64,000 nucleotides of DNA from Polyangiales bacterium (lineage in GTDB: Bacteria; Myxococcota_A; Polyangia; Polyangiales; Ga0077539): contig JBGARZ010000020.1 of NCBI GenBank assembly GCA_044229975.1, forward strand, positions 108,036 to 172,035, written 5' to 3'. Under the pieces are notes generated by a model. That model was not told the origin of the DNA. It made no database searches and saw only the letters and a list, made by a program, of their open reading frames with translations. The translations under genes were made by a program, and so were the position numbers. Positions 31,134 through 55,047 of the stretch are shown here, piece by piece. The first letter of the stretch is position 1; each line of letters begins with the position of its first letter.

Positions 31134-31215
31134 GCGAGGATGGCGGAATTGGCAGACGCACTAGCTTGAGGTGCTAGCGAGTAACATCGTGGGGGTTCAA
31201 GTCCCCCTCCTCGCA
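31134..31215 (+). tRNA. tRNA-Leu (anticodon GAG); CCA not encoded
   Basis: Acceptor GCGAGGA/TCCTCGC plus discriminator A, D loop GGAATTGGCAGAC, anticodon arm CTAGC-TTGAGGT-GCTAG, long variable arm, T arm GGGGG-TTCAAGT-CCCCC. Confidence 0.97.
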
Positions 31216-31220
31216 CTCTA

Positions 31221-31263: not shown

Positions 31264-31288
31264 GTTCACCCAAACGGTTCACCCAAAC
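31264..31288 (+). repeat. Direct repeat GTTCACCCAAAC x2, putative integrase arm-type sites
   Basis: Exact 12-mers at 31264 and 31277 near the tRNA end, overlapping the integrase stop. Confidence 0.6.
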
Positions 31289-32591
31289 CTCTGGGCAGGG
31301 GCAGCCGGAACCGCCTCGGGATGAGCTTGAGCTTCCGCATCTCGGCGCACTGCCGCTCCCAGCTCGGGACCGCGTACAGGTGCCGGGCGGTCTGGCTCGA
31401 CGGGGCGTGCGTCCACCGGGCGGCGACGTTCTCCTCCATGCCGGCGTCCGCGCAGAGCGACGCGAGGGTGTGACGGAGGTCATGGATGCGGTGACCCTTG
31501 ATCCCGCACGCCTCCAGGTCGCGCTGGAGGGCGTCCCACACCGCCTGCTGCCAGAGGGGGCCGCCAGCGCCCACGCGCGTCCCGCGCCGTCGCCCTGTTC
31601 CCGCGCGCACGGGCACGAGGAAGTCGGTGGGCGTCGGCGCGGCCCCGTACTCGGCCAGCCACCCCTCGCCCGCCCACCAGTCGAGCACCACGCGCAGGAG
31701 CGGGTGCTCGGGGACCTCGCGGCAGTTCTCCGTCTTCAACGGCGTGACCTCCCGCGTCCGGTGGTGGATCTGGCGGGCGATGGACACGCGCCGGAGCAGC
31801 GGCGTCTCTTCGTCGAGCAGGTCACACCATCGGAGCGCGACGGACTCGGACACACGCGCGCCGGTGAGCAGCAACAAGAACCACATCACCATCCAGCGCG
31901 GTTCGATCGACGGCTCGCCGAGCAACACCTCCACATCGCAGCGCGGCATCCGATAGTCGCGGCGAGCGATGGGGTCCGCGTCGATTGCCTGCGGGCGGAT
32001 GTCGCTCGGGAGCACGGCCGTCGGGTCCTGCACGAGCAGCTTGTGGAACACAGCGCCACGGAGGGCGCGCGCCACGGGGTCGAGGGTGTTGCGGACGGTG
32101 CGCGGCGCGGGTGCGCTCTTGGCGCGTGCCGTCTTGCGCCCGCGCACCAGTTCGAGCCACCGCGCGATGTGCTGCGGGTCCACCTTCGCCACGGACAACG
32201 TTCCGAGGCTCCACCCGTCGGGCGCGGCCAGGGCGAGCGCCGCAACGGTGCGACGACGGTCCTTCGCGGCCTCGGGGTAGGTCTGCTTCGAGAGCCAGTC
32301 GTCGCACCAGCTCGCGACGGTCATCTCTGCCGAAGGCGGCGGAGCAACGGGTTCGCGTGCATCGGGTGCCCAGCTCCCTTCGTCGTACCGCTCCTGGAGG
32401 CGGTGGGCGTACCGCTTCGCGTAGCCCTCGTCGGCGCGCGTGGTGCCGGTGACCGGCTCACCCTCGCGGGTGACCGGATGCTCCAGGCGGGGCGACCGAC
32501 GATCAAGCCCCTTGGGCTCGCGGGAGAGAGTGATGCGCGCGTACCACCGGCCCTTACGGTGGACGGCGCTGCCAGTGCGTGGGCGGGCCAT
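31266..32591 (-). CDS. Tyrosine recombinase/integrase
   Basis: TGARVSE (R), PLKT (K), HDLRH, WTH, HLY catalytic pattern; N-terminal arm-binding-like GRWYARI. Confidence 0.92.
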   Translation of the reverse strand: MARPRTGSAVHRKGRWYARITLSREPKGLDRRSPRLEHPVTREGEPVTGTTRADEGYAKRYAHRLQERYDEGSWAPDAREPVAPPPSAEMTVASWCDDWLSKQTYPEAAKDRRRTVAALALAAPDGWSLGTLSVAKVDPQHIARWLELVRGRKTARAKSAPAPRTVRNTLDPVARALRGAVFHKLLVQDPTAVLPSDIRPQAIDADPIARRDYRMPRCDVEVLLGEPSIEPRWMVMWFLLLLTGARVSESVALRWCDLLDEETPLLRRVSIARQIHHRTREVTPLKTENCREVPEHPLLRVVLDWWAGEGWLAEYGAAPTPTDFLVPVRAGTGRRRGTRVGAGGPLWQQAVWDALQRDLEACGIKGHRIHDLRHTLASLCADAGMEENVAARWTHAPSSQTARHLYAVPSWERQCAEMRKLKLIPRRFRLPLPRGLGEPFG

Positions 32592-32938: not shown

Positions 32939-33100
32939 CGGGTGATCGGTCGCGGATCACAGAAGCCGCTGCGTCACTCGCGAACATGGAGGGCAGAGCA
33001 CCACGAGGCCCTCCTTGGATGGCTCGCGGTTCCTTGGCGCGGCTTGCTTGAAATGGGGTCACGAGACCTTTACGCCCTCAGCGCGGGTGGGCCAGACGAT

Positions 33101-36100
33101 TTACGACGCGAGGGTGACCGCGACGGGAGAGGTGGCGTCGAGGACCGCTTCCAATTGCGCCATGGCCTCATCGGTCAGGTCAGAGAATGCCTTCGGTCGT
33201 CCCTCACGATCGGGGTGAAGAATGTGTTGTGTCCGATGTTCCGACCACCGGAGGGCATGGTCGGCCTGGGCTCCAGCCACGTAGAACCGTCGTTGCCCAC
33301 CGACCTTCGACTCCCGAAGCTCGACTCCGAAATGCTCCAGTGTGACCCGCACCAACCGGATCTGATCCCGATCGATGTCTGCCCGGACGACGATTCCCAA
33401 GGTCTCCAAGATCCGACGGTGGCGCTTGGCGTATGCGGCCACGCGGCCATCCGTGTGAACTTCCGTCGCGGCCCCCCATATTGTCGGGTCACGCGGGAGA
33501 CCTGCCGCATTGAGGATGTCCCCCCATGCGACGCAGTGAAGGTAGGAGAAGCTCGCGTGCGACGCGGGCACCCCTTGGCTCCGTTCTCGCCGGTCCATAG
33601 CCTTGACCGCGTCGGGATCGGTCACGAAGGCCCGGTACTTTGCGAACGCCCGCACCCGCGACGCGAGCTTGGTGTCTGCCACCTCGTTGACGGTCACACC
33701 AGGACCCAACAACTCCCGTGCTCGGTATTTCCGAATGGCGTCGGCGTCCTCCGGCGAGAGGTCGGTGCCGTCCAGCGCGTCGGCCTCGGTGTGCATCAGA
33801 TCACGGGCGGACCAGATCCGACGGGCCTCGGCCTCGCGTACCCGTGCCGCGGTGTCCTTGTGGAACTTCGTGACCTCTCGGCGTTGGCTCTGATCCAGGA
33901 CGCCCGAGGCCTCCAGCGTGGCGGCGTCCTCGGTCTCGGTAACGCCCGCTCCCTGACCTCGCAGATACGCCAGCAGCGCCCATCGACGGTCGCCGCCCGG
34001 GCCGCCGGTGCGACGCTCATAGGACAACACTTCCGCGTAGAGCCGGTTGTGGTCCGTACGCCAAGGATCACGGACGGCTGCCCCGTCGTGATAGACGATC
34101 TCGTCCACCACATGCTGTTGCACCGTGACCACCCCATCGGGGGAAAGCACGCGAACCGTCGTGTCCCCGGCGGCCAACAGCCCGTCGTAGATCCGCTGGG
34201 GGTCCGTCTCACGGGTCCCGCGTTGGCCTGGGGGGCAGTGAATCCGCACTTCGGTCGAACGAGGATGACGGACGCGGTGAGCTGCCTGGAGAAGGTCGTG
34301 GACGGTGCCGACGCCCTCGGCGGAGTAGACGTAGATCTGGTCGTAGTGGTCACGAACCGTGATGCTGAATCCCGAGCCCAACGTGGCCGTGTAGATGAGG
34401 GCGTCGTACGGGATCAACGGGTCGTTGAGGAACGCCTTGACCCTCGGGTCGGCGCGGACGGTCGTCGAGTTGATGAGCAACACGGAGGCTTCGGGGCGAA
34501 CCCGGAGGAGTTCATCCCGGAGCCACCCGACATCCATCGGCGGATCTTTCAGTTGCGTGCCCTTCACCGTGCTCTGGCGTTTCGACTGGCAATGAACGAC
34601 GAGGCGCTTCCCCGCGGCCCAATCGAGAAGAAGATCCCGGTCGGTCAAGGCCCGTACGGAGTCCACCCGATACGTGAACATCGGGATCGCAGGCAAGCAT
34701 CGCAATTCTTGATCGCGAGCGTCGTCGGGGTCGATTCCGAGAAGCTCCCGTGCAAGGCGGAAGGACCACGGATCGAGGTCGGCGTCCGCGATCACCACCT
34801 GTTCTGCGTTCTCGCAGAGACCTCGCAGTTGCCGGTGAACAGCCTCCGACTGAGGTCCTGAGAGCGTGGCACTGAAAAGGTGTCTGAGCGCCTGGGTGAA
34901 CTCGTCCAACACCACGAGGGCCGGGCGGATCGGCACCACGGTCCCGTCGGGTGTGGTGGTGCATGAGACGATCCGAAGCACCGAGTCCAGGCAGACGGCG
35001 AGGTCGCCCTCGACCCGGCGGGGTACACCGGGGTCCAGATAGCAGATCACCTGAAACCTCTGTGCCGCCTGCTGGGCGATGGTCTGGCGGTGGCTGATCA
35101 CCAGCACCGAGCCGGTGGCTCCCGAGGCACGGACCGCGTCGATGGCCCTTCGAATGACCTCGGTCTTCCCGGTGCCCTTGTCCGCGTGGAACCCGGTGAG
35201 GCGTGCCCGCAGTGGCTCGTACGGCAGATACCGACCCTCCACGAGCTCGTCGGCCCGATACACCCGCAGTCCCCCGACGGCTTCGAGGTCCCGCATGAGG
35301 GAGTTCCGAGAGGTGTTTTCGACGCCCGAGGGGGGGGTCGCACAATGGTCTCTTCTATTATTGTTGACACCATTTGTGCGACCCCCCCTAACTCCTTTGA
35401 GTGACACAGCATTTTCGGCTTCCGCCGCTTCTGTGCGCCCCCCCTTGGTCGCCGCCGCCGAGGGGCACCTCGAAGATCCCGGTGGCCGTCTCTCGAATCC
35501 CTCTGGGAACCCGTCGCGGTGCCAGAAACTCGTGTTGAGCTTCCACGACCGAAGCCACACGCGGCCATCGGCGTCGTGCCGAAGGACGCACGAACTCCCA
35601 TCGAGGTAGGTTTCGCCAGCCCGGCGCGGTTCCACTTGCCACGGGTTGCCGATGGGGCTGAACTCCGACCCCACAGGCACGTTCCCACGGGTCCACGTCA
35701 GGAGGTCAACGCCCGCCGTCGGGTGGAGCACCTGCGAGAAGTCCACGGTCACGTTCGCCCAAGAAGCAGCGCCGCTCCCCTTGCCCGTCGTGGTGTCCCG
35801 GACCTTCGACGCCCGTCGCATCTTCGCAGCGATGTCGCCGGGCACGGGCAGCGACGGCCATCGGGCCCGGTGAGACGGCTTGTCCACGGCCATGACCGTC
35901 TCTGCTTCGGACAGAATCGGCGCGAGGTCGAGGAGGGTGTCCGCAGCCTCGCCGCACCCACGAGCAGGCGGAACCCCGCCCCAATCACCTTCGCCCGCGA
36001 TTCGGGATGCGGGGTGCGACGGCAGGTAGAAGAGCCGCCCGTCCATCGCACGGGAGTCACAGGAGGGTTCCCCTGGTTTCACGGAGTCGAGGGGCAGACC

Positions 36101-36682
36101 CGCATCGATCAACTTCCGCCGCCCCCACCACCACGCCCGACAGGCGTCCTCGAAGGTAGTCGGTGCGGCGAGCAAGAGCACCACTCGAACGGATGCGTAC
36201 CCGTCTTTGCACGACCACGTCGTCCAAACCAGACGGCGGAGGCCGATGAAGGCCCTGTTGATGATATCCGACACGTCCTGGACAGAGAGCCCAACTGCGT
36301 CGAGATCGAAGGGGAGCATCACCCAGAGAGCCTGCTGGCATGAGACACCCCGTTTGGCACCGTTCGGGAGGCGATATGGTAGAACGCCCCGGGCGCACTC
36401 CTTCATCTTCAGGGGGTTCTTCTTCGTATGGGCTTTGTCTGCCCATGTGAACCTGTCCTTCTTGTTCGCGATAGCCTGTGGGAACAGAAGGGCTCGTACC
36501 GAGAGCCCCCAACCCTGCGGGGAAACGTCGATCACGACGTGATCCACTCGCCGCGGACACTCCATTCTTGGTGCGATATCGAGGACGACTTCGACGGCTT
36601 CGTTCGCATTGGAAGGACTATCGTTTGTGGTATTGTGAGTTGTCACGTCGTTGGTCCTTGCGAGCCCCGCCCTTGTCGCCAA
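33101..36682 (-). CDS. Replication protein: primase-polymerase-like N-terminus plus UL9/CyRepA1-type SF2 helicase
   Basis: FDLD...WTTWS...VRVVLLL...RLFYLP (AEP-like); HADKGTGKT, VISHRQTIA, VLDEF, ADADL, IYTATLGSGFSI, QAAHRVR (SF2). Start uncertain. Confidence 0.75.
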   Translation of the reverse strand: MATRAGLARTNDVTTHNTTNDSPSNANEAVEVVLDIAPRMECPRRVDHVVIDVSPQGWGLSVRALLFPQAIANKKDRFTWADKAHTKKNPLKMKECARGVLPYRLPNGAKRGVSCQQALWVMLPFDLDAVGLSVQDVSDIINRAFIGLRRLVWTTWSCKDGYASVRVVLLLAAPTTFEDACRAWWWGRRKLIDAGLPLDSVKPGEPSCDSRAMDGRLFYLPSHPASRIAGEGDWGGVPPARGCGEAADTLLDLAPILSEAETVMAVDKPSHRARWPSLPVPGDIAAKMRRASKVRDTTTGKGSGAASWANVTVDFSQVLHPTAGVDLLTWTRGNVPVGSEFSPIGNPWQVEPRRAGETYLDGSSCVLRHDADGRVWLRSWKLNTSFWHRDGFPEGFERRPPGSSRCPSAAATKGGRTEAAEAENAVSLKGVRGGRTNGVNNNRRDHCATPPSGVENTSRNSLMRDLEAVGGLRVYRADELVEGRYLPYEPLRARLTGFHADKGTGKTEVIRRAIDAVRASGATGSVLVISHRQTIAQQAAQRFQVICYLDPGVPRRVEGDLAVCLDSVLRIVSCTTTPDGTVVPIRPALVVLDEFTQALRHLFSATLSGPQSEAVHRQLRGLCENAEQVVIADADLDPWSFRLARELLGIDPDDARDQELRCLPAIPMFTYRVDSVRALTDRDLLLDWAAGKRLVVHCQSKRQSTVKGTQLKDPPMDVGWLRDELLRVRPEASVLLINSTTVRADPRVKAFLNDPLIPYDALIYTATLGSGFSITVRDHYDQIYVYSAEGVGTVHDLLQAAHRVRHPRSTEVRIHCPPGQRGTRETDPQRIYDGLLAAGDTTVRVLSPDGVVTVQQHVVDEIVYHDGAAVRDPWRTDHNRLYAEVLSYERRTGGPGGDRRWALLAYLRGQGAGVTETEDAATLEASGVLDQSQRREVTKFHKDTAARVREAEARRIWSARDLMHTEADALDGTDLSPEDADAIRKYRARELLGPGVTVNEVADTKLASRVRAFAKYRAFVTDPDAVKAMDRRERSQGVPASHASFSYLHCVAWGDILNAAGLPRDPTIWGAATEVHTDGRVAAYAKRHRRILETLGIVVRADIDRDQIRLVRVTLEHFGVELRESKVGGQRRFYVAGAQADHALRWSEHRTQHILHPDREGRPKAFSDLTDEAMAQLEAVLDATSPVAVTLAS
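35331..35445. other. Candidate replication origin inside the rep gene
   Basis: Perfect 15-bp inverted repeat (35331-35345 / 35374-35388) around a 28-bp AT-rich spacer; third degenerate box at 35432-35445. Confidence 0.55.
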
Positions 36683-36777: not shown

Positions 36778-36996
36778 TCATGGCGTCCCCTCGATGAGCC
36801 TCTCGACCGCGAGCACATCCACCCTCACGGCCCGACCCAGACGGAGCGGGGCGATGCCCAGCCGACGAAGGGTTCTCTCGACCGTTCGCGGGCTGCACTT
36901 CCACCTCGCGGATGCCTGCTCGACCGTCATCCACAGGCGGTCGGTGTTCGGGGCCTGGGAGGGGGACGAGGGGGGTGTCGGGACGGGTGTGGTCAT
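36778..36996 (-). CDS. HTH_17/excisionase-like DNA-binding protein
   Basis: WMTVEQASARWKCSPRTVER...LRLGRAVRV; RBS GGAGG before ATG 36996. Confidence 0.75.
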   Translation of the reverse strand: MTTPVPTPPSSPSQAPNTDRLWMTVEQASARWKCSPRTVERTLRRLGIAPLRLGRAVRVDVLAVERLIEGTP

Positions 36997-37493
36997 CGGC
37001 TTGCTCCTCCAAGGGCGCGCCGATAGGCCAAGTACCGAGGGGACGGCCCCGGACGGCGCGCGGTGCCGTGCGTTCGTCGCGGGTGCGTCGGGTGAAGGGG
37101 AGTCGGTGCGGGTCATGAACCCTTTACGCACTCGACGTGGGGGGACGGTCGAATTCGTCCTCCATCTGAACCGACATCGACTCGGTGGTCTTGAAACGTG
37201 ATTTCGTCCCGCCGGGACTACTCGGGGGACGTCGGGGGGACGACAGACGCCCTGGGGGCATCAGGCAAAAGGGGGGTTTGCAGGGGTTTAGTGACCTTTT
37301 CGAGGTGGCTCCCCCCGGTTCATAAGAACCGCAAAGATAAGTTCCGACCCCCCCGGTCCTACCCCCAAAAGGCTCTATCGATCCGGCAAGGATTTTCTGA
37401 GGGCCTTGGCTTCAATGGGGTTCGGCCTGCCTTCACCGCAGCCTGCCCCGCGCCCGGCCTCGGGGAGGTTCCGTGGGAATCGGCAGGGCGGCA

Positions 37494-37559
37494 GTCGATC
37501 TCGCTAAACACCGCCCCGCGAGAGTTGTGAGGAGGTGGGAGGGGAACGGCTCGCTGACC
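37494..37559 (+). promoter_or_regulatory. Conserved motif copy 1: TCGCTAAACACC-N8-AGAGTTG...GGGGAACGG
   Basis: Three copies with identical spacing; this copy is upstream of the AAA ATPase. Confidence 0.65.
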
Positions 37560-37609
37560 CATTGTGGGCAGGAGTGTCGTCGCCTCATCCCCACCGAAAA
37601 CAACGACCT

Positions 37610-38752
37610 ATGACCACGACCCTCACATCCAACGGCACGCTCGGCCCCACCCTCGACGCGACCAACCTCGCCACCGTGCTGGGCCACGTCCTTGAGGCGA
37701 ACGCCCTGGCGACCGCCTACTGTGAGCTCCCGACGCCCGTGTGCATCTGGGGCCCGCACGGCATCGGCAAGACCGCCCTCGTGAGGGAGCTCGCTCGCAC
37801 CCGGGGTTGGGGCTTCGTCGTCGTAGCACCGGCACAGATCGAGGAGCTCGGGGACCTCCATGGTCTGCCCACGCGCATCGACGGCGGGACCGGCGAAGCC
37901 AAGGACGGGCGCACGGGCTTCCTGCCGCCCACCTGGGTCCCGACCCAGAAGGGCCCCGGCATCCTCCTGTTGGACGATTTGAACCGCGGGGACGTTCGCG
38001 TGTTGTCCGCCCTCATGCAGCTCCTCCAGACGCACCGCCTGTACTCCTGGTCGTTGCCTCCCGGATGGCAGATCGTCTGCACCGCGAACCCGGACAGCGG
38101 GTCGTACGCCGTGACGCCGATGGACGACGCGATGCTCACCCGGATGGTGCACTTCACGATGACCTTCGACGCGAGGGTCTGGGCGCGGTGGGCCCACGAC
38201 GCCGGGATCGACCCCCGCTGCATCGAGTTCGTGACGACGTACCCCGAGGCTGTTCTTGGTCGGCGTACGACGCCCCGCACGCTGGTGCAGTTGTTCCGCC
38301 TCGTCGCCCCGATCCGCGACTTCAACAGCGCCCGCGAGCTCGTCTCCAGGCTCGCGCATTCGACCCTCGACGTTGGTACCGCGGCGTCGTTCGTGAGCTT
38401 TGTCTGTGTCGAACAACACCAGCTCGCCACCGCCAAGGACATCCTCGACGCCGCCACCCCTGCGGACGCGCGCAAGCACATCATCAACGCCGCGACCGAC
38501 CACACTCAGGGAGGGCGGCTTCGCATCGACCGTGTGGGGCTGGTGATCGCTCGCATCGAAGAGGTGATCGAGGCCGACGACTACACCCCCGGCCCCCGGC
38601 ACCCGGCCAATCTCTCGGCCCTACTCGCGAGCGCGGAGGTGCCGCGGGACATGGCGATGCGCCTGCACCGCGCCCTCGCACGACGGGGCCTCGGGCATCT
38701 CGTGCGAGACCGCGCCGTTGCGAAGCGCCTCCTCAACGAGGGGGCGTCGTGA
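37610..38752 (+). CDS. AAA+ ATPase (MoxR-related, partner of DUF2201-VWA)
   Basis: CIWGPHGIGKT, PPTW, ILLLDDLNRGD, IVCTANP, MDDAMLTR, TPRT. Confidence 0.85.
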   Translation: MTTTLTSNGTLGPTLDATNLATVLGHVLEANALATAYCELPTPVCIWGPHGIGKTALVRELARTRGWGFVVVAPAQIEELGDLHGLPTRIDGGTGEAKDGRTGFLPPTWVPTQKGPGILLLDDLNRGDVRVLSALMQLLQTHRLYSWSLPPGWQIVCTANPDSGSYAVTPMDDAMLTRMVHFTMTFDARVWARWAHDAGIDPRCIEFVTTYPEAVLGRRTTPRTLVQLFRLVAPIRDFNSARELVSRLAHSTLDVGTAASFVSFVCVEQHQLATAKDILDAATPADARKHIINAATDHTQGGRLRIDRVGLVIARIEEVIEADDYTPGPRHPANLSALLASAEVPRDMAMRLHRALARRGLGHLVRDRAVAKRLLNEGAS

Positions 38753-39963
38753 TGGTGGCCCGTGAGCCCGTCACCATCACCGACGATGAGTGCTGCGAGC
38801 TCCTCGCGACCGCGTCGTGGGACCTCGGCCGCAAGCTCCCCTTCTACGGGCACGTCCTCGCCGCGTTCGACCGCGTCGTTGGTGTCTCCGTTCCCACCGC
38901 CGCCGTGGGTGCGGGTCACGAAGGGCAGCCCACGCTCTTCCTCAACCCAACGTTCTTCGGGGCCACGCTGCGACGCGACGAGCACCGCATCGCGGTCCTC
39001 GAACACGAGGTCCTTCACGTGGTCTGCGGCCACTTGCGGTTGAACACCGCCGAGATGCCCGACGCCCGGCGAAGGGCCATCTCGATGGACATCGTGGTCA
39101 ACCAGTACGTTTCGCACCCGCTCCCACGCGGCGCGGTCACCCTCGCGGCGTTCAAGGACTTCCCCGCCGGGCTCACCGTCGAGAGCTACTACCGCCTGTT
39201 GTCCAAGATCCCCGACGAGGAGCTCGCGAGGTTCGGGCGGGACCTTTCCCGCGGGCACAACCGCTGGAGCGACCCTCAAACAGACGAGAGCGGGCAACGG
39301 CTCGTGGACACGCTCGACGAGATCGTCACCGAGGCCCTGCGTCGGGCTGAACGCGATGGGAGCTTCGACTCCCTCGCCAAGCCGCTGCGGCTGTCGCTCT
39401 TGCGGGGTCGTCTCTCTCCCGTGGGTGCCACCGACTGGCGGCGTGCCCTGCGGCTCTTCAGTGCCCGCGCCCTCCGTGCTGGTGTGCGCGCCACCAACCA
39501 ACGGGAGTCCCGCCGCTACGGAGCCTCCACGGGCGACTGGCGGGGTCCAATCGTGCCGGGCCTCCGTCGCGGTCGCAGACCCTCCTTGGCGGTGGCCATC
39601 GACACGTCGGGTTCGATCCCGATCGACACTGTCGGGAGGTTCTACGAGGAGGTCGGGCGCATCGTCGCCGCCGGAGCCACCGTCCACATCATCGAGTGCG
39701 ACCTCGCGGTGCAGCGCACCTACCCGTGGACAGGGGTGCCGCCCACGCACTCCACGGGCGGCGGTGGGACGAACTTCGACCCCGTCTTCCGGTGGCTCAT
39801 CAACGAGGGCCGCCGGTTGAACCTCTCGGGCTGCGTGTACCTCACCGACGGTCACGCCCCGCGCCCTCTTGTACGCCCGCCGGTCCCGGTGCTCTGGGCG
39901 GTCACCGCCAACGGGACGAACGCCAACACGGCCTTCGGGCCGAGCATCTCCCTGCCCGCGTAG
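38752..39963 (+). CDS. DUF2201-type metallopeptidase (HEXXH) plus VWA domain protein
   Basis: VLEHEVLHVV, MDIVVNQ, AVAIDTSGSI, GGGGTNFDPVF, YLTDG; TGATG overlap with the ATPase. Confidence 0.85.
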   Translation: MVAREPVTITDDECCELLATASWDLGRKLPFYGHVLAAFDRVVGVSVPTAAVGAGHEGQPTLFLNPTFFGATLRRDEHRIAVLEHEVLHVVCGHLRLNTAEMPDARRRAISMDIVVNQYVSHPLPRGAVTLAAFKDFPAGLTVESYYRLLSKIPDEELARFGRDLSRGHNRWSDPQTDESGQRLVDTLDEIVTEALRRAERDGSFDSLAKPLRLSLLRGRLSPVGATDWRRALRLFSARALRAGVRATNQRESRRYGASTGDWRGPIVPGLRRGRRPSLAVAIDTSGSIPIDTVGRFYEEVGRIVAAGATVHIIECDLAVQRTYPWTGVPPTHSTGGGGTNFDPVFRWLINEGRRLNLSGCVYLTDGHAPRPLVRPPVPVLWAVTANGTNANTAFGPSISLPA

Positions 39964-39966
39964 TTT

Positions 39967-40025
39967 TCGCTAAACACCCCCCTCGCAGAGTTGTTAGGGG
40001 TTGGAAGGGGAACGGTTCAGACCGA
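39967..40025 (+). promoter_or_regulatory. Conserved motif copy 2
   Basis: TCGCTAAACACC-CCCCTCGC-AGAGTTG-TTAGGGGTTGGAAGGGGAACGG. Confidence 0.65.
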
Positions 40026-40093
40026 CGCGGGCACCGGGTGGTGCTCGTCGTCGCGACGACCATCCCGCGCCCGCCATGGTCGAACGCTCGCGT

Positions 40094-40157
40094 GTCGATC
40101 TCGCTAAACACCCACATCCCAGAGTTGATAGGGGGGAAGGGGGACGGAACGCTGACC
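40094..40157 (+). promoter_or_regulatory. Conserved motif copy 3
   Basis: GTCGATC-TCGCTAAACACC-CACATCCC-AGAGTTG-ATAGGGGGGAAGGGGGACGG, upstream of the DUF932-like gene. Confidence 0.65.
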
Positions 40158-40286
40158 GATACGACGCACGGGCGGTCGTCACGGAGAGCCCCGCAACACC
40201 CGCTTCGAGAACCCCCGACCATTCACCGAGAGCACGCGCCCTTGCGCTCTCTCACCCCTCTCTATTCACCGAAAGGAACCGTCTCC

Positions 40287-41366
40287 ATGAACCACGCCGT
40301 CGTCCCCGCCAACATCACCACGCTCGCCCGAACGTCCATCGCCGCCAACACCTCCTCGCCGCCGCCTACCCGGATGCTCAAGGGCCGCTCGTTCGCCAAC
40401 GTGTTCGAGTCCGTGATGACTCGCGCTGGCGAGATGGTCCCCGACCGTGTCGTCCACGTCGCCGACCTGCGTATGACGCCCGAGGGCCACGTCGAGCTCC
40501 CCGGCGGCACGCGCTACCGCCTCAACGACTGGGCTCGCAAGGGCCTCGCCTCGATGCTCGGTCTCCGCTGGGAGACGTGGTTCAAGTCGGCCTCGGGTGA
40601 GGAGCGCGCCGAGGAGGTCAACCGCCGCTTCAGCAGGATTCCGGGCGAGAAGAAGATCCGTGCGTGGCGCGACGACGACGGTGTGGCCGATGGCATCGCC
40701 AGGGCCTTCCTCGCCCCGGGCTTCACGCCCATCGACGACGCCCGGATCTTCGAGCGCATGAACACCATGCTCAAGGGGCTCGTCAGCGAGTACGTGTGGA
40801 CCGCCACGGAGTTCACCGACTCGACGAGCAACTTCACGGCGGTCCACACCGAGGCGTTCGACCTGGACGGCGACCGGCTGCACCCCGGGTTCCATCTCAG
40901 GAACTCAGAGGTGGGTGGGGCGGCGCTGTCCCTCGATGACTACGCCATGAGGCTCGTCTGCATGAACGGGCTCATGGTGCGGGTCGGCGGCAAGCGCTCC
41001 CTCTACCGCACGCACCGCAGCATCGAGGACGACCAGCTCGCGGCTGCCCTCGTGATTGCCGTGGGTCGCCTTCCCCAGCGGTGGCAGGTCTCCTTGGAGT
41101 GGATGCGCGCTGCCAAGGGCCTCGCCGTCGCCCACCCCGACGACGCGGTGGCCGCGATCCTCGGTGATTCCACCGAGGTGCCGAAGGCCCTCATCGAAGA
41201 GGCGCAGCGCGTGGTGCTCCGCGACGGGGATGCGACGCGCTTCGGCGTCGTGCAGGCCATCACACTCACGGCGCATCAGTCGAACCGTAACCCCGACGTG
41301 CGGTTCGCCATGGAGCGCCTCGCGGGCGACTACCTCGCGGCCACGCCCGTCCTCACGGCAGCGTGA
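40287..41366 (+). CDS. DUF932-like phage/plasmid protein
   Basis: RAFL...FTPIDD, GFHLRNSEVG, RLVCMNGL; RBS AAAGGA. Confidence 0.7.
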   Translation: MNHAVVPANITTLARTSIAANTSSPPPTRMLKGRSFANVFESVMTRAGEMVPDRVVHVADLRMTPEGHVELPGGTRYRLNDWARKGLASMLGLRWETWFKSASGEERAEEVNRRFSRIPGEKKIRAWRDDDGVADGIARAFLAPGFTPIDDARIFERMNTMLKGLVSEYVWTATEFTDSTSNFTAVHTEAFDLDGDRLHPGFHLRNSEVGGAALSLDDYAMRLVCMNGLMVRVGGKRSLYRTHRSIEDDQLAAALVIAVGRLPQRWQVSLEWMRAAKGLAVAHPDDAVAAILGDSTEVPKALIEEAQRVVLRDGDATRFGVVQAITLTAHQSNRNPDVRFAMERLAGDYLAATPVLTAA

Positions 41367-42235
41367 CCACGCACCCGGTCGGGCCCCTCATGGACATCAT
41401 CCATGAGGGGCTCGCGGGACCCCCATCGAGGACCGCCGTGATCCTCCCCGACAACTACTCCGTCCGCGGCGCTCGTGGGCGCTTCGATCCGCAGGCGTGG
41501 ATCCGCCATCTCGCGGACCATCCCGCCGACGTTGCTCACCAGATCGAGCTCCTATCCCTCCTCGACGACGAGGTGGTTGAGACCCTGCTGGCCGGCGTGG
41601 ATGTCGGCCCGAGGTACCCGGTGAGGGCGTCGGGCTCGTCCCTGCGTTGGGTGCTTCCGCGGGTGTTCCGTCGGCCCCGTCCGGTGACTGTGCTCGACGT
41701 GAGGTTCTCGACGCACCTCGCGGCCGTACTTGGTCTCGCGGCGTGGGGCGAAGGGCCCGCTGCACGGCGAGTCCGGTCGGGACTCCGCGAGTTGCACCTC
41801 CCGCAGCGGGCTCAGTGGTGGCTGAACGACAGCCTGGAGAGCTTGAACAACCTCGTGCAGTTCACCGCGCCCGGTACCCTTTGGCACCCGGCCGCGACGT
41901 TGCCGCGACGGTTCTTCGTGATGCCGAAGATGAACGAGCTCGACCTCAACGGGGCGGGGCTTGGTGACTTCCGAGTCGCAACCACCGAGTGGAACCTCCC
42001 CGTCGTGACGCGCCTCTCCCTCTCGGGCAACAGCCTCACGAGGGTGCCTGACGCGGTGCTGCGGCTCGACACCCTGGAGGTCCTGAACCTCATGTGCAAC
42101 CCCATGAGGGAGGTGCCCGAGGCCCTCGCGGCCCTCCCGAGGCTGCGCTACCTCGACCTGCGGCAAACCGGCGTCATGTCGCTCCCGGCAGCCTTCGCCG
42201 CCCGCCCCGGACTCCATGTCCAGCGCGGGGACTGA
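41363..42235 (+). CDS. Leucine-rich repeat protein
   Basis: LSLSGNSLTRVP, LEVLNLMCNPMREVP, LRYLDLRQTGVMSLP; GTGA overlap with the DUF932-like gene. Confidence 0.75.
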   Translation: MTTHPVGPLMDIIHEGLAGPPSRTAVILPDNYSVRGARGRFDPQAWIRHLADHPADVAHQIELLSLLDDEVVETLLAGVDVGPRYPVRASGSSLRWVLPRVFRRPRPVTVLDVRFSTHLAAVLGLAAWGEGPAARRVRSGLRELHLPQRAQWWLNDSLESLNNLVQFTAPGTLWHPAATLPRRFFVMPKMNELDLNGAGLGDFRVATTEWNLPVVTRLSLSGNSLTRVPDAVLRLDTLEVLNLMCNPMREVPEALAALPRLRYLDLRQTGVMSLPAAFAARPGLHVQRGD

Positions 42236-42379
42236 CGCCCCCAGACACACGCTCCGACTCGGGTGCCCCGCCACCACGAGTCCGTCCCGATCACGAACGC
42301 CAACCACCTGGGCGGGTCGCCGTCCTTCACGACGGCGCAGCCGCCGCTCCATGTCCGAACGAAATGAGACACGTCCGTC

Positions 42380-42937
42380 ATGAACAACAAGCCACTCTCA
42401 TCTGTTCCGTTCCCGAACTCCACCCCGGAAGGGAGGTTCTCCCTCGACGACTCCGACGTGCTGCCCATCAAGTACGCCGGGCACGCGGTGGTGGGCGTCC
42501 TGGTGGGGTGCCGTCCTCAGTGGGTCTCTGTCGCCGTGCGAGACGGGACGTGTGGCGGGTACCACCTCGCACCCCGGCAACCGCGCGACCGCCGCGGCAT
42601 GATGGTCGCCCTCGCGGGCCACGTCGCCCTGTCGATCTACGCCGAGAGGGCAGTCATGGCTGCGGACCTCGCCACATGGGCCGAGGTCACCGACCTCGCC
42701 AGCTTCGCAGACCTGTTCACCCCGGAGGTGCGTGACGACGATCGACAGTTTCGCGACCTCTACGAGCGCCTCTGCGCCGAAGTCCGGGAATTGCTCCTGG
42801 CGCACTGGGCGAGCGTCCTCGTCCTCGCCACCGAGCTCGCAGACTGCGGGCGACTCGAAGGCCCCGAGCTCACCCGGATCGTGCGGGGGGTCACGTCCGC
42901 CCGCCGTCGTCCCGAACTGACGACGCCCGCCGGATGA
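42380..42937 (+). CDS. Stand-alone M41/FtsH-peptidase-like protein with degenerate Zn motif (paralog A)
   Basis: IKYAGHAVVG in place of HEAGHA; MVALAG; VRELLLAHWASVLVLATEL..CGRLEGPEL like the FtsH C-terminus. Confidence 0.6.
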   Translation: MNNKPLSSVPFPNSTPEGRFSLDDSDVLPIKYAGHAVVGVLVGCRPQWVSVAVRDGTCGGYHLAPRQPRDRRGMMVALAGHVALSIYAERAVMAADLATWAEVTDLASFADLFTPEVRDDDRQFRDLYERLCAEVRELLLAHWASVLVLATELADCGRLEGPELTRIVRGVTSARRRPELTTPAG

Positions 42938-43078
42938 AGCGTCTCCAGTGCCCTTCCCACCCACACCAACGAGTCGCCCTCAACCACCCATGACCATCAA
43001 CACTCCCGTTCGATCCCTCTGTTGCGCCTTCGAAACGGCCCTGAAGCCACTCTCTTCAGGAATCCAGGAGCCCCGATC

Positions 43079-44317
43079 ATGACCACCCATCAAGCCTCCC
43101 CCGTCCCGTCGTCCATCCCGACTGAGATCGACGTGAAGATCGACGACCTCAAGTTCGACCCCAAGCTCCAGACGCGGGCGAAGCCCCACGACCGGCAGTA
43201 CGTCATGGGCCTCTGCGAGGTGATCCGGGAGCGAGGGTTCCAGGATTCCATCGTGGTCTTCCGTGATCCCACCGACGGGAGCCAATGGGTGGCGGACGGC
43301 CACGCCCGGGCGGATGCCGCGAGGTCGGCCGGATGCGCCACGATCCGGGCCCGCGTCCACGAAGGTGGACTTCGAGAGGCCTTCGAGTTCGCCCTGGGAG
43401 CCAACGCCACGCACGGTGTCCGCCGGACCAACGCGGACCTTCGCCACACGGTACTGACGGCTCTCGCAGACCCCGGTACGAAGACGTACACGAACGAGAA
43501 GATCGCTGATCTGTGTCACTGCTCCGACCACTACGTCGGCGTTCTCCGCAACAAGCTGGCGGCGACGAGTGGCAACCCGGCGGAAGCTCGCCGCACGGGC
43601 AAGGATGGGAAGTCCTACCCGGCGAGGCGTCCCCGCAAGGCGGCAGTGCCGACCAGATCGAAACCGGCCAGAAGTTCCTCGGTCGCGGTGTCCCCTCCGC
43701 AGACCAGGACCGACTCGCTCGCATCGACGGACGGGGCAGCGGGGTCCAGCATCGCCATCACCAAGGGAGTGCCCACGGAGGCGAGCCACGATGGTCTGAG
43801 CGCCGAGGTGACGACGCCGACCAACTCGACGCACGTCATCCACGAGGTCGTCGGGGTCATCCCGGTTGAGCCGCCCGCGGCCCTCCTGGGAGAAGGCCCC
43901 CACGTGGTCGCCACCCCGAGTGAGGGTGAGCCCACGGCGATGCCGACCGACGCCACGGTGGTCTCCACCCCGGAGGACGTGATCCCGTCCATCACGATTC
44001 CCTCGGCGCTGGGCGAGGACGAGGAAGCTCTGTTGGGACAGCTCCTCAGCATCTGCGCGAAGATTCACGCCCGTCGCCAGCGCCAACCGGAGGTGACCGT
44101 CCGGGAGGACCTCGTTCGGGCGGCCCGCGAGAAGGTCGCGCGATGCCTGGACGAGTGCTACCCGGATACGCGGGACACCGTTCACGGGAAGCTCACCAAC
44201 GCCCCGGCCCGGTTCTACGAGATGATGGGTTACAACCCCCGTCCCGGTCACGGGAGTGACGAGGCAATTCTGGGCGTGCTCTCGGCGGAGATCGACCAGG
44301 AGCGCCTGACCACCTGA
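43079..44317 (+). CDS. ParB/Srx-like N-terminal domain plus HTH and low-complexity tail
   Basis: LQTR, IVVF, WVADGHAR, ANATHG.RRT.AD, NEKIADLCHCSDHYV; RBS AGGAG. Confidence 0.75.
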   Translation: MTTHQASPVPSSIPTEIDVKIDDLKFDPKLQTRAKPHDRQYVMGLCEVIRERGFQDSIVVFRDPTDGSQWVADGHARADAARSAGCATIRARVHEGGLREAFEFALGANATHGVRRTNADLRHTVLTALADPGTKTYTNEKIADLCHCSDHYVGVLRNKLAATSGNPAEARRTGKDGKSYPARRPRKAAVPTRSKPARSSSVAVSPPQTRTDSLASTDGAAGSSIAITKGVPTEASHDGLSAEVTTPTNSTHVIHEVVGVIPVEPPAALLGEGPHVVATPSEGEPTAMPTDATVVSTPEDVIPSITIPSALGEDEEALLGQLLSICAKIHARRQRQPEVTVREDLVRAAREKVARCLDECYPDTRDTVHGKLTNAPARFYEMMGYNPRPGHGSDEAILGVLSAEIDQERLTT

Positions 44318-44594
44318 CCGCAGGTAGATGCGCGCCTGACCCACTACGGGGCTCCTCGGTGTTGACCGAGGAGCCCCGGCCCGTCGTCCTCGCTGCGAGG
44401 GCGGGGCCGGGGAGCGCCGTGGTCGTCCGCGACCGTCCAGTACCTCAACGAGGACGGGGACACGGGTGAGCGCCGAGGGGCCAACGACGCGGAGAACCGG
44501 AGGGTGATGGTCGCGAGAAAAAATCTCGGGAGGGGGCTCATGCGGGCGTAACGCGCAGTGCAGGACACCAGACCCCCTGCAGAAGGTAAAGCAA

Positions 44595-45455
44595 ATGACG
44601 ACCAACGACGCTATCTCGAATCCGGTCTCGGCCACGCTCCCTGTGCCGGAGGTACCCTCGCTCCTTCTCTTCCGTTCCACACTGGCAATCAAGATGGCCG
44701 GACACGCGGTGGTCGGAGAGGCCATGGGCCGTCGCCCGAGGTCGGTGTGGTTGAATCCCCGTGACGGGATGTACGGAATTTACCGCATCGATAGGCCCAA
44801 AGCGGACGCTGAACTCAGCGCGATGGTCGCCCTCGGTGGGTACGCCGCCCTGAGCATCGCGGATCTGATGGACGAGCCCACGTCCAAGGGCTTCAGGGAG
44901 TCTGCTCTGTGCACCGACGCACACCACGCCTCCATGTACTTTCCCACGGAGGAGAACAACCGCCCTGCACTGGCGCTGCGGCTCCTCCCCTTCGTTCACG
45001 ACTTGCTGCTTCGGCGATGGAACAGGGTGAAGATCGTCGCCGCGTACCTCGATGAACACGGAATGATCGACGGTCCGACCCTGGGACGTCTCGTCTCTGC
45101 GGCCGACAACATCGAAGTGCCGGGCCCTCAGATCGAGGATGCTCAAGTGTTTCCGATCGCCAGTCCCGCGGTCCCCATGAAGGCCGTCGATGCGCATGAG
45201 AGTGCCGTGGTCCGAGACGCAGAGAGCACGCAGGTCAACCCCGCCAAGCCCCAACGGATCGCAAGCGAGTACGATGTGGATCTCCTCCGTGAGGTTCTCG
45301 AAGGCATCGCATCCAAGGAGGTGTCCGTCGAGGAAGCGGTGGCCTTCCTGAAGCCCACGCCGATGCAAGAGATCGCCCTTCGTTCTTTCGCCCGTGAGGG
45401 TTCCACCCTCGCCAAGGCCCTCGACGCCTTCACCTACACCCCGTCGCAGAAGTAG
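44595..45455 (+). CDS. Stand-alone M41/FtsH-peptidase-like protein with degenerate Zn motif (paralog B)
   Basis: IKMAGHAVVG, MVALGG.AALSI, VHDLLLRRWNRV..VAAYL.EHGMIDGPTL; extra C-terminal VLEGIASKEVSVEEA segment. Confidence 0.6.
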   Translation: MTTNDAISNPVSATLPVPEVPSLLLFRSTLAIKMAGHAVVGEAMGRRPRSVWLNPRDGMYGIYRIDRPKADAELSAMVALGGYAALSIADLMDEPTSKGFRESALCTDAHHASMYFPTEENNRPALALRLLPFVHDLLLRRWNRVKIVAAYLDEHGMIDGPTLGRLVSAADNIEVPGPQIEDAQVFPIASPAVPMKAVDAHESAVVRDAESTQVNPAKPQRIASEYDVDLLREVLEGIASKEVSVEEAVAFLKPTPMQEIALRSFAREGSTLAKALDAFTYTPSQK

Positions 45456-48527: not shown

Positions 48528-51500
48528 ATGATCCAGCTCGAACAGCTCCAACCCCGCGCCGCGATCCGGGGCATCGTCCCGGACGCGCTGGTCGTCGTGG
48601 TCAGCGTCCAGTGGTTCGGCTCCGAGGCGCTCGAACTCACGTACAAGACCTCCACCGGGAAGGTCGCCAACGAGCTGCTGTACCGCGACGACGAGGCCCG
48701 CCTGGACGTCGTCGAACAGGGCCGCCCCTGGAGCTTCGACGGCGACGGTGCCCTCTTCCGCCTCGTCTCCGAGGCGCAGCGCATCCGCCTCGCGCACCTC
48801 TTCGACCCCGTGCTCGCCGTGCATACCTCCGTGGTCGATCCGCTCCCGCACCAGATCACGGCGGTCTACGAGGCCATGCTGCCCCGGCAGCCGCTGCGCT
48901 TCCTGCTGGCCGACGACCCGGGTGCGGGCAAGACCATCATGGCGGGCCTGCTCATCAAGGAGCTCATCGCCCGCGGCGACCTGCAACGCTGCCTCATCGT
49001 GTGCCCCGGCAGCCTCGCCGAGCAGTGGCAGGACGAGCTCTACCGGCGCTTCCACCTGCCGTTCGAGATCCTCACCAACGACAAGGTCGAGGCCGCCCGC
49101 ACCGGCAACTGGTTCCTTGAGACCAACTTGGTGATCGCCCGCCTCGACAAGCTCTCACGCAACGAGGACATCCAGCAGAAGCTCCAGGCCCCCGACTGCC
49201 GGTGGGATCTCGTGGTCTGCGACGAGGCCCACAAGATGTCCGCCACGGTCTTCGGCGGCGAGACCAAGTACACCAAGCGCTACCGCCTCGGGCAGCTCCT
49301 CTCGACGCTCACGCGGCACTTCCTCCTGATGACGGCGACGCCGCACAACGGCAAGGAGGAGGACTTCCAGCTCTTCATGGCGCTCCTCGACGGGGACCGC
49401 TTCGAGGGCCGCTTCCGCGACGGCGTGCACGTCGCCGACGCCTCCGACCTCATGCGCCGGATGGTGAAGGAGAACCTGCTCAAGTTCGACGGCACGCCCC
49501 TGTTCCCCGAGCGCATCGCGTACACGGTCCCCTACAAGCTCTCGGACGCCGAGGCGCACCTGTACAAGGCCGTCACGACCTACGTCCGCGAGGAGTTCAA
49601 CCGCGCCGACGCCCTGGAGAACGACAAGCGCGCGGGCACCGTCGGCTTCGCCCTCACCGTGCTCCAACGCCGTCTGGCCTCGTCGCCCGAGGCGATCTAC
49701 CAGTCGCTCCACCGACGACGCGAACGCCTGGAGAGCCGCCTCCGTGAGCTGGAGGTGCTCCAGCGCAGCGGTCAGACCGCCCCCGTCCTGGCGGCGTCGG
49801 TGCCCGCCCTCGACGCGGACGCGGTGGAGGACCTCGACGAGGCCCCGGACACCGAGGTCGAGGCGATCGAAGAGGAGGTCCTCGACCAAGCCACCGCGGC
49901 GCGGTCGATGGCGGAGTTGAAGATCGAGATCGAGACGCTGAAGGCGCTGGAGTCGCTCGCCCTCACGGTCCGCCGCAGCGGCAACGACACCAAGTGGCGC
50001 GAGCTCGCCAGCCTCCTCGGCGAGATCTTCACGGACTCGTCCATCACGAACCGTCTCGCGGAACCGAAGGTTCAGTACGGCCACGCGATCCCGCCCCCCA
50101 AGGCGTCGCCCCACCAGAAGCTGGTGATCTTCACCGAGCACCGCGACACGCTGAACTACCTCCAGAACCGCATCACGACGCTCCTCGGGCGCAAGGACGC
50201 GGTGGTGATGATCCACGGCGGGGTGGGACGTGAGGACCGGCTGAAGGTCCAGGAGGCGTTCCGGCACGACCCCGAGGTGCAGGTTCTCCTGGCCACCGAC
50301 GCCGCGGGGGAGGGCATCAACCTCCAGCGCGCCCACCTGATGGTGAACTACGACCTCCCGTGGAACCCCAACCGCCTGGAGCAACGCTTCGGGCGCATCC
50401 ACCGCATCGGCCAGACCGAGGTGTGCCACCTCTGGAACCTCGTGGCCGAGGAGACCCGCGAGGGCGATGTCTACCGGAAGCTCCTCGACAAGCTCGAACA
50501 GGCCCGCAAGGCGCTCGGCGGGCAGGTGTTCGACGTACTGGGCAAGCTCCAGTTCGAGGGGGAGTCGCTGCGGGAGCTGCTCATCAAGGCCATCCGCTAC
50601 GGGGACCAGCCCGATGTCCGGGCACGCCTCACGGTGGCGGTGGAGAACGCGCTCGACCGCACCCAGATCCAGAACCTTCTGGAAGACCACGCGCTCGCCC
50701 ACGACGTGATGGATGTCGGACGGGTCCAACGAATCCGCGAAGACATGGAGCGCGCGGAGGCCCGTCGTCTCCAGCCCCATTACATCGAGTCGTTCTTCGC
50801 GCAGGCGTTCAAGGGCCTCGGGGGCACGGTCAAGCAGCGTGAGCCTCGCCGCTACGAGATCACCCACGTCCCCGCCCCGGTTCGCAACCGAGACCGCCTC
50901 ATCGGCATTCGCGAGCCCGTGCTCCCACGGTACGAGCGCATCGCGTTCGAGAAGGCCCTCATCGCTCCCCCAGGGCAGCCCCTGGCGGCCTTCGTGTGCC
51001 CTGGGCACCCGCTCCTCGACGCGGTGCTCGACCTCACGCTCGAACGCCACCGCGACCTCCTCAAGCGCGGCGCGGTGCTCGTGGACGAGCGCGACCCTGG
51101 CACGCAGCCCCGGGTGCTCTTCTACCTCGAACACGCGATCCAGGACGCAAGCCTCACCCGCACCGGGGAGCGCCGCGTCGTCTCGAAGAAGATGCTCTAC
51201 GTCGAACTCGACGGAGAGGGCCACGCCCGCCATGTCCACTACGCGCCGTACCTCGACTACCGGCCCCTCGCCGCGGGCGAGCCCGGCGTGGACGCCCTCC
51301 TCGACCGGCCCGAGTGTGCCTGGATCGAGCGCGAGATCGAGTCGAAGGCCATGGGCCACGCCATCGCCCACGTCGTCCCCGAGCACTTGAAGGAGGTGCG
51401 GGACGCGAAGCTCGCGCTCCTCGCCAAGACCGAGGCGGCGGTGAAGGACCGGCTGACCAAGGAGATCACCTACTGGGACCACCGGGCCGAACAGCTCAAG

Positions 51501-52106
51501 ATGCAGGAGCAGGCGGGCAAGCCCAACGCCAAGCTGAACTCGGACGAGGCCCGCAAGCGCGCCGACGGCCTCCAGGGAAGGCTCCAGAAGCGCCTGGAAG
51601 ACCTCAAGCTCGAAGGGAAGATCTCCCCGCTCCCCCCCGTAGCACTCGGGGGCCTCCTGGTGATCCCGGCGGGCCTCCTCGCCGCGATGAGCGGACGGGC
51701 ACCGCTGACGACGGGCAAACCCGTGGACACCCAGGTGAGCGCGGCCCGAGCTCGCGCCGTGATCATGGACATCGAGCGTCGTCTCGGGTTCGAGCCCACG
51801 GACCGGGAGTTCGAGAAGCTCGGCTACGACATCGAGAGTCGTGTGCCGGGTACCGGCAAGCTGCGCTTCGTCGAGGTCAAGGGGCGGGTCGCGGGCGCGG
51901 ACACCATCACGGTGACCCGCAACGAGATCCTCTACTCTCTCAACAAGCCCGGCGACTTCATCCTTGCGATCGTCGAGTTCACGGGCGAGGACACGCACCG
52001 GGCCTACTACCTCCGCCAGCCCTTCCAACGGGAGCCGGACTTTGGGGTAACCAGCGTGAACTACGACTTTGCGGATCTGCTCAAGAGGTCGAGAGAGCCG
52101 TCATGA
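48528..52106 (+). CDS. SNF2-family helicase with C-terminal DUF3883 (NOV-C) nuclease-like domain
   Basis: PLPHQ, LLADDPGAGKT, DEAH, MTATPH, ATDAAGEGINLQ, EQRFGRIHRIGQ, GYDIES...VEVKG. Confidence 0.92.
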   Translation: MIQLEQLQPRAAIRGIVPDALVVVVSVQWFGSEALELTYKTSTGKVANELLYRDDEARLDVVEQGRPWSFDGDGALFRLVSEAQRIRLAHLFDPVLAVHTSVVDPLPHQITAVYEAMLPRQPLRFLLADDPGAGKTIMAGLLIKELIARGDLQRCLIVCPGSLAEQWQDELYRRFHLPFEILTNDKVEAARTGNWFLETNLVIARLDKLSRNEDIQQKLQAPDCRWDLVVCDEAHKMSATVFGGETKYTKRYRLGQLLSTLTRHFLLMTATPHNGKEEDFQLFMALLDGDRFEGRFRDGVHVADASDLMRRMVKENLLKFDGTPLFPERIAYTVPYKLSDAEAHLYKAVTTYVREEFNRADALENDKRAGTVGFALTVLQRRLASSPEAIYQSLHRRRERLESRLRELEVLQRSGQTAPVLAASVPALDADAVEDLDEAPDTEVEAIEEEVLDQATAARSMAELKIEIETLKALESLALTVRRSGNDTKWRELASLLGEIFTDSSITNRLAEPKVQYGHAIPPPKASPHQKLVIFTEHRDTLNYLQNRITTLLGRKDAVVMIHGGVGREDRLKVQEAFRHDPEVQVLLATDAAGEGINLQRAHLMVNYDLPWNPNRLEQRFGRIHRIGQTEVCHLWNLVAEETREGDVYRKLLDKLEQARKALGGQVFDVLGKLQFEGESLRELLIKAIRYGDQPDVRARLTVAVENALDRTQIQNLLEDHALAHDVMDVGRVQRIREDMERAEARRLQPHYIESFFAQAFKGLGGTVKQREPRRYEITHVPAPVRNRDRLIGIREPVLPRYERIAFEKALIAPPGQPLAAFVCPGHPLLDAVLDLTLERHRDLLKRGAVLVDERDPGTQPRVLFYLEHAIQDASLTRTGERRVVSKKMLYVELDGEGHARHVHYAPYLDYRPLAAGEPGVDALLDRPECAWIEREIESKAMGHAIAHVVPEHLKEVRDAKLALLAKTEAAVKDRLTKEITYWDHRAEQLKMQEQAGKPNAKLNSDEARKRADGLQGRLQKRLEDLKLEGKISPLPPVALGGLLVIPAGLLAAMSGRAPLTTGKPVDTQVSAARARAVIMDIERRLGFEPTDREFEKLGYDIESRVPGTGKLRFVEVKGRVAGADTITVTRNEILYSLNKPGDFILAIVEFTGEDTHRAYYLRQPFQREPDFGVTSVNYDFADLLKRSREPS

Positions 52107-55044: not shown

Positions 55045-55047
55045 CCC

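Follow-up and report, generated by a model that had tools for sequence, protein, structure and literature searches.

What reads a bipartite motif that stands three times on the forward strand of a Polyangiales bacterium contig, each time ahead of genes of a small module? The motif lies in a stretch of 64,000 nucleotides (positions 108,036 to 172,035 of contig JBGARZ010000020.1, assembly GCA_044229975.1; the whole stretch is hereafter the window), on an island integrated at tRNA-Leu, and a sequence-only reading had proposed it to be a promoter with sigma28-like geometry. Exact TCGCTAAACACC-N8-AGAGTTG is present at 37501, 39967 and 40101, with the purine-rich tails which that reading had described, with copies 1 and 3 flanked by upstream GTCGATC and downstream GCTGACC, and with the TAAA-N15-GTTGTGAG/GTTGTTAG/GTTGATAG spacing, all of which can be read directly from the DNA. 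We find that the same motif is carried by jumbo phages, and on sequence comparison it is fairly likely that the island copies are sigma70-family promoters whose sigma factor would come from the phage, with the island genes remaining silent until that phage lineage infects.

The window holds three matches at up to three mismatches, compared with 0.01 expected from 100 shuffles. The conserved unit, as defined from 27 distinct homologous copies, is longer than first noted and spans 41 bp of the form CGATTYYR-CTAAA-N16-TTGTTAGGGG(T), with CTAAA and A-GTTG unchanged in 27/27 copies and a fixed spacing between boxes. In the seven island copies, including that of the family genome G072, CTAAACACC and A-GTTG are invariant and the 8-nt spacer is variable. 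A scan of the host assembly (G000; 10.0 Mb in 39 contigs) at up to three mismatches recovered the three window copies and one three-mismatch match on contig C33; from host word counts, CTAAA-N12-AGAGTTG is expected 0.001 times per genome. The best two-box score outside the island is 16 bits relative to 34-38 bits for the island copies, and a matrix built from 25 phage-only copies has exactly three matches above 8 bits in this assembly, which are the island copies (31-47 bits). The copies of G072 and of the metagenome loci L055 and L064 score 37-59 bits on the same matrix. Among 300 other genomes only G072 has an exact match, a single copy between int-xis and an AAA gene, where the integrase is only 47% identical to that of the window island, and within the 31 family genomes matches with fewer than three mismatches are confined to G000 and G072. 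A class-wide scan (0/401) carries no information, since the pattern used failed to recover even the copies of the window itself. Set aside for lack of the extended unit were viral exact matches in L007 and L008 (36% GC), one-mismatch matches in G184 and G196, and seven of the ten loci from a further motif scan. A match at the end of contig C2, first read as an rRNA promoter, was rejected as well, since the 16S start was not found and the site is a set of short palindromes. These palindromes (C2:354500-354700) have the form ATTAG(G/A)CAGCGGC..CTAAT, with GTTGTTAGGGG and TACCGATAGGGT, both -10 variants, nearby and without CTAAA.

A metagenome scan returned 23 loci, nine of which have the full 41-bp unit; the remaining 14 lack it and were set aside. 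Full-unit loci include the sister island L064, which is at the same tRNA and has two motif copies, the loci L055, L059 and L066, where near-identical vWA junctions are followed by xis-like and integrase genes, and five that are phage DNA (L049, the overlapping L050/L054, L056 and L063). Four IMG/VR contigs with the motif are also phage DNA. On the phage loci up to nine copies stand in tandem at 73-90 bp spacing, some back to back, and these arrays precede short genes or an AAA/vWA pair, with a Shine-Dalgarno (SD) sequence and ATG immediately downstream of several copies. The IMG/VR fragments have genes for UvsX-like recombinase, clamp, SbcC, ribonucleotide reductase and endolysin and a CheckV completeness of 9-12% at 39-53 kb, which would imply phage genomes near 0.4 Mb. 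No isolate phage was matched by blastn of the motif array, an IMG/VR search with the island integrase gave no match, and the matched sequencing runs contain only 7-15% of the words, with no habitat assigned. As would be expected of promoters for a phage sigma factor, the motif is repeated before phage genes and is absent elsewhere in the host chromosome. Since it is shared with jumbo phages and occurs nowhere else in the host, the island copies are likely promoters that would be switched on only by such a phage. Sigma54-like TGGCAC-N5-TGC sites also stand back to back with arrays on phage DNA (L054:13600-13950, L063:7830-8080, L050:3000-3020); an enhancer role for those of L054 and L063 was considered and dropped, as the arrangement is absent from the island copies and from the complete phage relative LR745208.1.

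The reading of the motif as a promoter with sigma28-like geometry is supported by related phages. LR745208.1, the nearest complete relative (485 kb; recombinase 68% identical), lacks the window-type variant. De novo counting there gave CTAAA-N16-CCGAT as the top family of gapped word pairs, with 48 exact CTAAA-N16-CCGATA(G) sites that have the same CGATTTCN 5' anchor as the island motif, and 41 of the 48 are followed by SD and ATG within 40 nt, as opposed to 18% of random positions. We take CTAAA-N16-CCGATAG to be the sigma28/sigmaD consensus. The -35 box and spacer of sigma28 (FliA/SigD/WhiG) promoters (TAAA/CTAAA, 15-16 bp) are present in the window motif; their -10 box (GCCGATAA/CCGATAT) is found only in the LR745208.1 sister motif, with GTTGTTAG identical to sister GCCGATAG at 5/8 positions. 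Other phage lineages have motifs of their own, namely CTAA(T/G)-N15-CCGGTTAG in G640 (11 sites), GTTAC-N15-TCCGT in G641 (25 sites) and TGTAA-N16-GTGCA in G305 (14 sites), with the CGATT anchor retained in the G640 sites and in many of the G641 sites; de novo counting gave no motif in G309. Marker proteins of G640 exhibit 64-76% identity in six of the ten tested (recombinase 69%; others 53%, 48% and 30%).

A prediction set beforehand was that kin of the host should carry the variants of other phage lineages. The G640 variant was found in two of the 31 family genomes, G043 and G169. Scored with a matrix made from G640 sites alone, these matches reach 36-49 bits, and G000 has none above 15 bits. 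The G043 copies precede an operon of leucine-rich-repeat (LRR), AAA, vWA, (..) and LRR genes, with 67%, 55% and 48% identity to window proteins, and no integrase was seen beside the G043/G169 operon. A weaker, 20-bit copy of the G640 type at L288:7037 (G043 contig C120) stands before a neighbouring gene at 7131.

The evidence for dependence on a phage, whether through a sigma factor or through the activator considered below, is stronger than that for any one protein as the reader. No RNA polymerase beta subunit was found in three near-complete phage relatives and no full FliA-like gene in five phages. The phages do encode three sigma-related families, which are the tandem-sigma4 proteins, the ECF-like family A1 and p282. 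The p282 gene is located after the motif arrays in L056, L049, G301/G302 and G303, and its own promoter is sigmaA-like. The L056 protein matches a profile of host sigma factors at E 0.001, the atlas neighbours of p282 are Sigma70_ECF/r2 at 0.95-0.96, and among the Foldseek matches listed all except the last are sigma70-family chains. Its identity is 69-81% among motif-bearing phages, 48-52% to G640, 33-36% to LR745208.1 and 28-34% to G305; judged by these values, divergence of p282 runs parallel to divergence of the motif. These several agreeing signals point weakly to p282 being a sigma factor, and because this support is weak the reader of the motif is one that we infer. The A1 gene is located behind a TTGACA promoter, and A1 was demoted as a reader since the G640 and G641 proteins are 78% identical and nearly the same in region 2, yet the motifs of these lineages are unlike. 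Both the A1 and the tandem-sigma4 families are conserved across lineages with unlike motifs. The tandem-sigma4 proteins (L141:1183-1776, L147:1129-1662) have two sigma region-4-like helices and are encoded beside a NusG-like gene in five of five related records. An island-encoded reader, which the sequence-only reading had allowed for, finds no candidate, as no sigma-like gene was found in the island part of the window.

We propose a cascade in which host sigmaA would transcribe an early phage sigma factor, putatively p282 as the gene right after the motif arrays, which would in turn read both island and phage promoters through a predicted -35 CTAAA, a 16-bp spacer and a predicted -10 TTGTTAG. 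The AAA+/vWA and DUF932-LRR genes would then be expressed only upon infection by the matching phage lineage, most likely with the effect that a MoxR-like/metallopeptidase-vWA chaperone pair and LRR proteins would hinder phage development or exploit it. Our best reading is that the module would be phage-inducible, with a defence or satellite function. More tentatively, with somewhat less than even confidence, we suggest that myxobacteria may use a jumbo-phage sigma promoter as an infection sensor for an undescribed AAA+/metallopeptidase-vWA/LRR anti-phage operon, with the promoter swapped to follow the phage lineage met and with phages escaping by changing sigma factor and promoter together.

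Several observations weigh against a phage sigma factor as the switch. The p282 profile match is only at E 0.04-0.4 in three other copies, its best Foldseek match has an E of 0.043 and a TM of ~0.2 with none at E<=0.001, hhalign gives a probability of 35%, and a comparison with PDB sequences gave no match. LR745208.1 keeps the CTAAA box despite a different p282 C-terminal helix, and its p282 gene has no motif of its own upstream. G640 has an extra sigma32/RpoD-like gene near its promoter cluster (L255:16508-17323), which was not found in LR745208.1 or in the motif-bearing fragments and which could be the reader in G640; none of 20 contigs has both the window-type variant and the second sigma-like family. 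A reversed control pattern also gave three matches in 31 genomes, so the raw count of the G640 variant alone is not above control, and G043 and G169 amount to one independent event given their ~90% identity at this site and that both G043 copies belong to a single 110-bp stretch repeated at contig ends. A search of the 31 family genomes for the G641 variant gave no match. No starts are visible in the RNA-library contigs, which extend across the divergent intergenic region. PADLOC found no match for seven window proteins at 37610-45455 or for the G043 LRR protein, so a defence role of the motif-driven proteins stays a candidate only. Finally, at least 56 sigma-like open reading frames (ORFs) are present in the host assembly, whose completeness is 93%.

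One rival is that phage and island both exploit promoters read by an alternative sigma factor of the host, either FliA-like or ECF. A host FliA-like gene, which the sequence-only reading had advised looking for, is indeed present (165 bits, below the cut-off of 189.6) with DELR and ESRVSQIH intact, and LR745208.1, whose sister motif conforms to the canonical sigma28 type, has no FliA-like gene. G000 also has four CTCAA-N15-RCCGATA sites (C17:135886-, C20:158451+, C23:95247+, C25:50929-), one of which is two genes behind the FliA-like gene and ahead of a GGDEF gene, and these are possibly a small host sigma28-type regulon. However, the island variant with TTGTTAG has no further site in the host by either the two-box or the phage-matrix scores given above, the family matches are limited to G000 and G072, and a single genus carries two variants, each fitting a different phage lineage. 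A host reader is thus unlikely, and the suggestion of FliA or WhiG in that role has its gene but not its other sites.

Also unlikely is that these are MotA-like, activator-dependent sigmaA promoters, which would still be phage-inducible by another mechanism. Here TG-N-TAGGGG/TAGGGT would serve sigmaA as an extended -10, with a phage protein, for example tandem-sigma4, bound to CGATT..CTAAA in place of TTGACA. Host sigmaA promoters, as taken from tRNA genes, are TTGACA-N17-TA with a loose -10, a TA is found 33 nt after CGATT in the island motif and in the sigmaA-like promoters before p282, and tandem-sigma4 genes occur in every one of the related records searched (5/5). The G641 and G305 variants lack a TA at that position, though, and the tandem-sigma4 recognition helices are identical (VSQPTVCYRLQR) in three lineages with different motifs.

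A relic is quite improbable. On this reading a phage was the source of the module and its promoters alike, and the promoters now have no role or serve merely as short homologies for gene shuffling (PeSL-like). It would account for islands differing in what follows the copy next to vWA, which is DUF932 in the window and in L064 but an xis-like gene and an integrase in L055/L059/L066, for variable motif copy number and for -10 boxes in copies 1 and 3 that depart from the phage consensus. Against it, a comparison of the island AAA, vWA, DUF932 and LRR proteins with the available phage sequence (one complete genome plus fragments of others) found no homologue at E<=1e-3, the boxes are invariant while the spacers drift, and the homologous G043 operon carries another phage's variant. 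A recombination site (attC/att/lox-like) or structured RNA element is very improbable, as the conserved arms around a variable 8-nt centre, the GTTAG/CTAA words and the adjacent integrase that recall one are countered by arms that are not inverted repeats, spacers that differ among copies, the absence from the window copies of integron attC features (RYYYAAC..GTTRRRY inverted arms, foldable hairpin, constant core), folding z-scores of these copies that are not significant (-1.6 to +1.3) and a sister motif that tracks gene starts.

Copies 2 and 3 had been thought to mark a deleted cassette. The comparison with L064, which has a single copy after the vWA stop where the window has two, and the contigs of individual sequencing runs, which lack 132-133 nt between copies 2 and 3 in two of four runs and step back 129 nt in a third, reveal instead a one-versus-two copy difference with no sign of a lost gene. 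Judging by these junctions, short homology has varied the number of copies here as it has in the phage arrays, and the direction of the change is not polarised.

Known systems resemble this arrangement in part. Sigma28/sigmaD (FliA, WhiG) promoters have CTAAA and a 16-bp spacer, as does the window motif, and the sister motif adds CCGATAG; the window motif differs in its -10 TTGTTAG, its fixed 5' anchor CGATTYYR and the lack of a host regulon of this type. In P4, a satellite that also encodes a delta of its own, the late promoters are turned on by Ogr, a transcription factor of the helper phage P2 which activates the sigma70 holoenzyme; for the window motif the likely reader is instead a phage sigma factor, the helper would be a jumbo phage of lytic type, and no gene for capsid or packaging functions was identified. 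T7 islands of enterobacteria, reportedly described by Chen and Schneider in 2006, are said to be integrated islands with tandem lytic-phage promoters and without the reading enzyme, and they likewise bear the phage's own tandem promoters but not the reader. The promoters there are of the single-subunit T7-type RNA polymerase, whereas the window island has bipartite sigma70-type promoters of jumbo phages lacking an RNA polymerase, in lineage-specific variants and in a likely myxobacterial host. PLE and SaPI satellites are chromosomal islands with an integrase and a replication gene, for which activation by relief of repression (H-NS, anti-repressor) is discussed (PMC13595925); the window island shares this gene content and a predicted phage-specific response, but would use mimicry of a phage promoter rather than relief of repression. 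The same MoxR AAA+/metallopeptidase-vWA domain pair as in the window island occurs in group 2.2 jumbo phages, for which a virion-assembly role has been proposed (Iyer et al., PMC7824862). The window pair differs in being host-side and behind a phage-type promoter, with no close homologue in the phage sequence compared, and given the role proposed for the phage pair a phage-induced host copy would be placed to disturb or exploit assembly. PeSL mobile promoter cassettes of T4-type phages are repeated conserved promoter units ahead of variable genes (PMC2839356, PMC4122927), a likeness to the window motif, which differs in having no stem-loop and in being common to phage and host island. We found no account of the motif, the phage family or the island in a literature search whose coverage excluded most subscription papers and the supplements of huge-phage surveys.

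Read in this way, the motif links an uncultured ~0.4-0.5 Mb phage family to a likely myxobacterial host genus and provides the promoter code of that family along with a candidate new sigma family. The host module would be one whose expression is triggered by the phage's own transcription factor, a sensing logic that is invisible to protein-based defence scans, and the corresponding search rule, a phage promoter in host DNA, could lead to further phage-inducible operons. With four or five variants, the sigma/promoter pairs would also lend themselves to use as orthogonal parts and as a set on which to test how sigma factors recognise DNA.

The island runs from tRNA-Leu, across a contig gap, to contig C37, where the 3' end of the tRNA recurs, and its features are listed in the table. 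As in satellites of the P4/PICI/PLE type, integrase, excisionase-like and replication genes lie between att repeats. No capsid-hijacking or packaging gene is found among 23 ORFs scanned by Pfam, several of which have no assignment, on an island that crosses the contig gap. A 111-residue ORF is also leftward of copy 1, in the integrase/rep/HTH_17 group, and copy 1 ends 74 nt upstream of the AAA+ gene start.

Table. Predicted promoters and annotated genes of the island within the window.
Feature	Position	Strand	Details
tRNA-Leu(gag), attL	31134..31216	+	tRNA 3' end repeated on contig C37 near 1800-1830 (attR)
Tyrosine integrase of island	31266..32591	-	Pfam PF00589
CyRepA1-like replication protein	33101..36682	-	NCBIfam NF042913 E 7e-55, 187 bits, below cut-off of 200
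HTH_17 (excisionase-like), divergent from copy 1	36778..37131	-	Pfam
Promoter copy 1 (predicted)	37496..37536	+	CGATCTCG anchor; 43.1 bits on phage-only matrix
Copy 1 predicted -35, CTAAA	37504-37508
Copy 1 predicted -10, TTGTGAG	37525-37531
AAA_5 (MoxR-like) ATPase, first gene after copy 1	37610..38752	+	Pfam AAA_5 E 2.5e-6
Metallopeptidase-vWA protein (DUF2201_N + DUF2201)	38752..39963	+	Pfam
Promoter copy 2 (predicted)	39962..40002	+	overlaps vWA stop codon; 46.7 bits on phage-only matrix
Copy 2 box CTAAA	39970-39974
Copy 2 box TTGTTAG	39991-39997
Promoter copy 3 (predicted)	40096..40136	+	134 bp past copy 2; 31.0 bits on phage-only matrix
Copy 3 box CTAAA	40104-40108
Copy 3 box TTGATAG	40125-40131
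DUF932-like gene after copies 2 and 3	40287..41366	+	Pfam DUF932 E 0.0012, below curated cut-off
Leucine-rich-repeat protein, one operon with DUF932-like gene	41363..42235	+	Pfam LRR_8 E 3e-10
ParB-like protein	43022..44317	+	TIGR00180 E 4e-4

The ParB-like protein has an 80-residue stretch in common with a phage gene directly behind a motif copy (L050:5141; phmmer E 2.5e-14). Relatives of DUF932 are present in Myxococcaceae/Myxococcota records, and homologues occur in other elements (L009, L013 of G145, and L020, with 78% identity in L020) where the motif is not present; the homologues of G145, L020 and L021 are without it, and in G145 and L020 they are downstream of a sigma54-activator-like gene. 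Window positions 33056-33090 and 37110-37144 are alike, with minus-strand GCGTAAAGG 5-6 nt upstream of GTG/ATG; these stretches, with a similar word in G072, are possibly leaderless promoters of xis-like genes. Paralogous ORFs at 42380-42937 and 44595-45455, of which L064 has one copy, have no Pfam match and both contain AGHAVVG, which presumably recalls the HEAGHA of FtsH/M41 without its HE. Further along, the window contains a complete HmaABC defence system at 48528-58422, followed by a GmrSD-N protein at 59129-61255.

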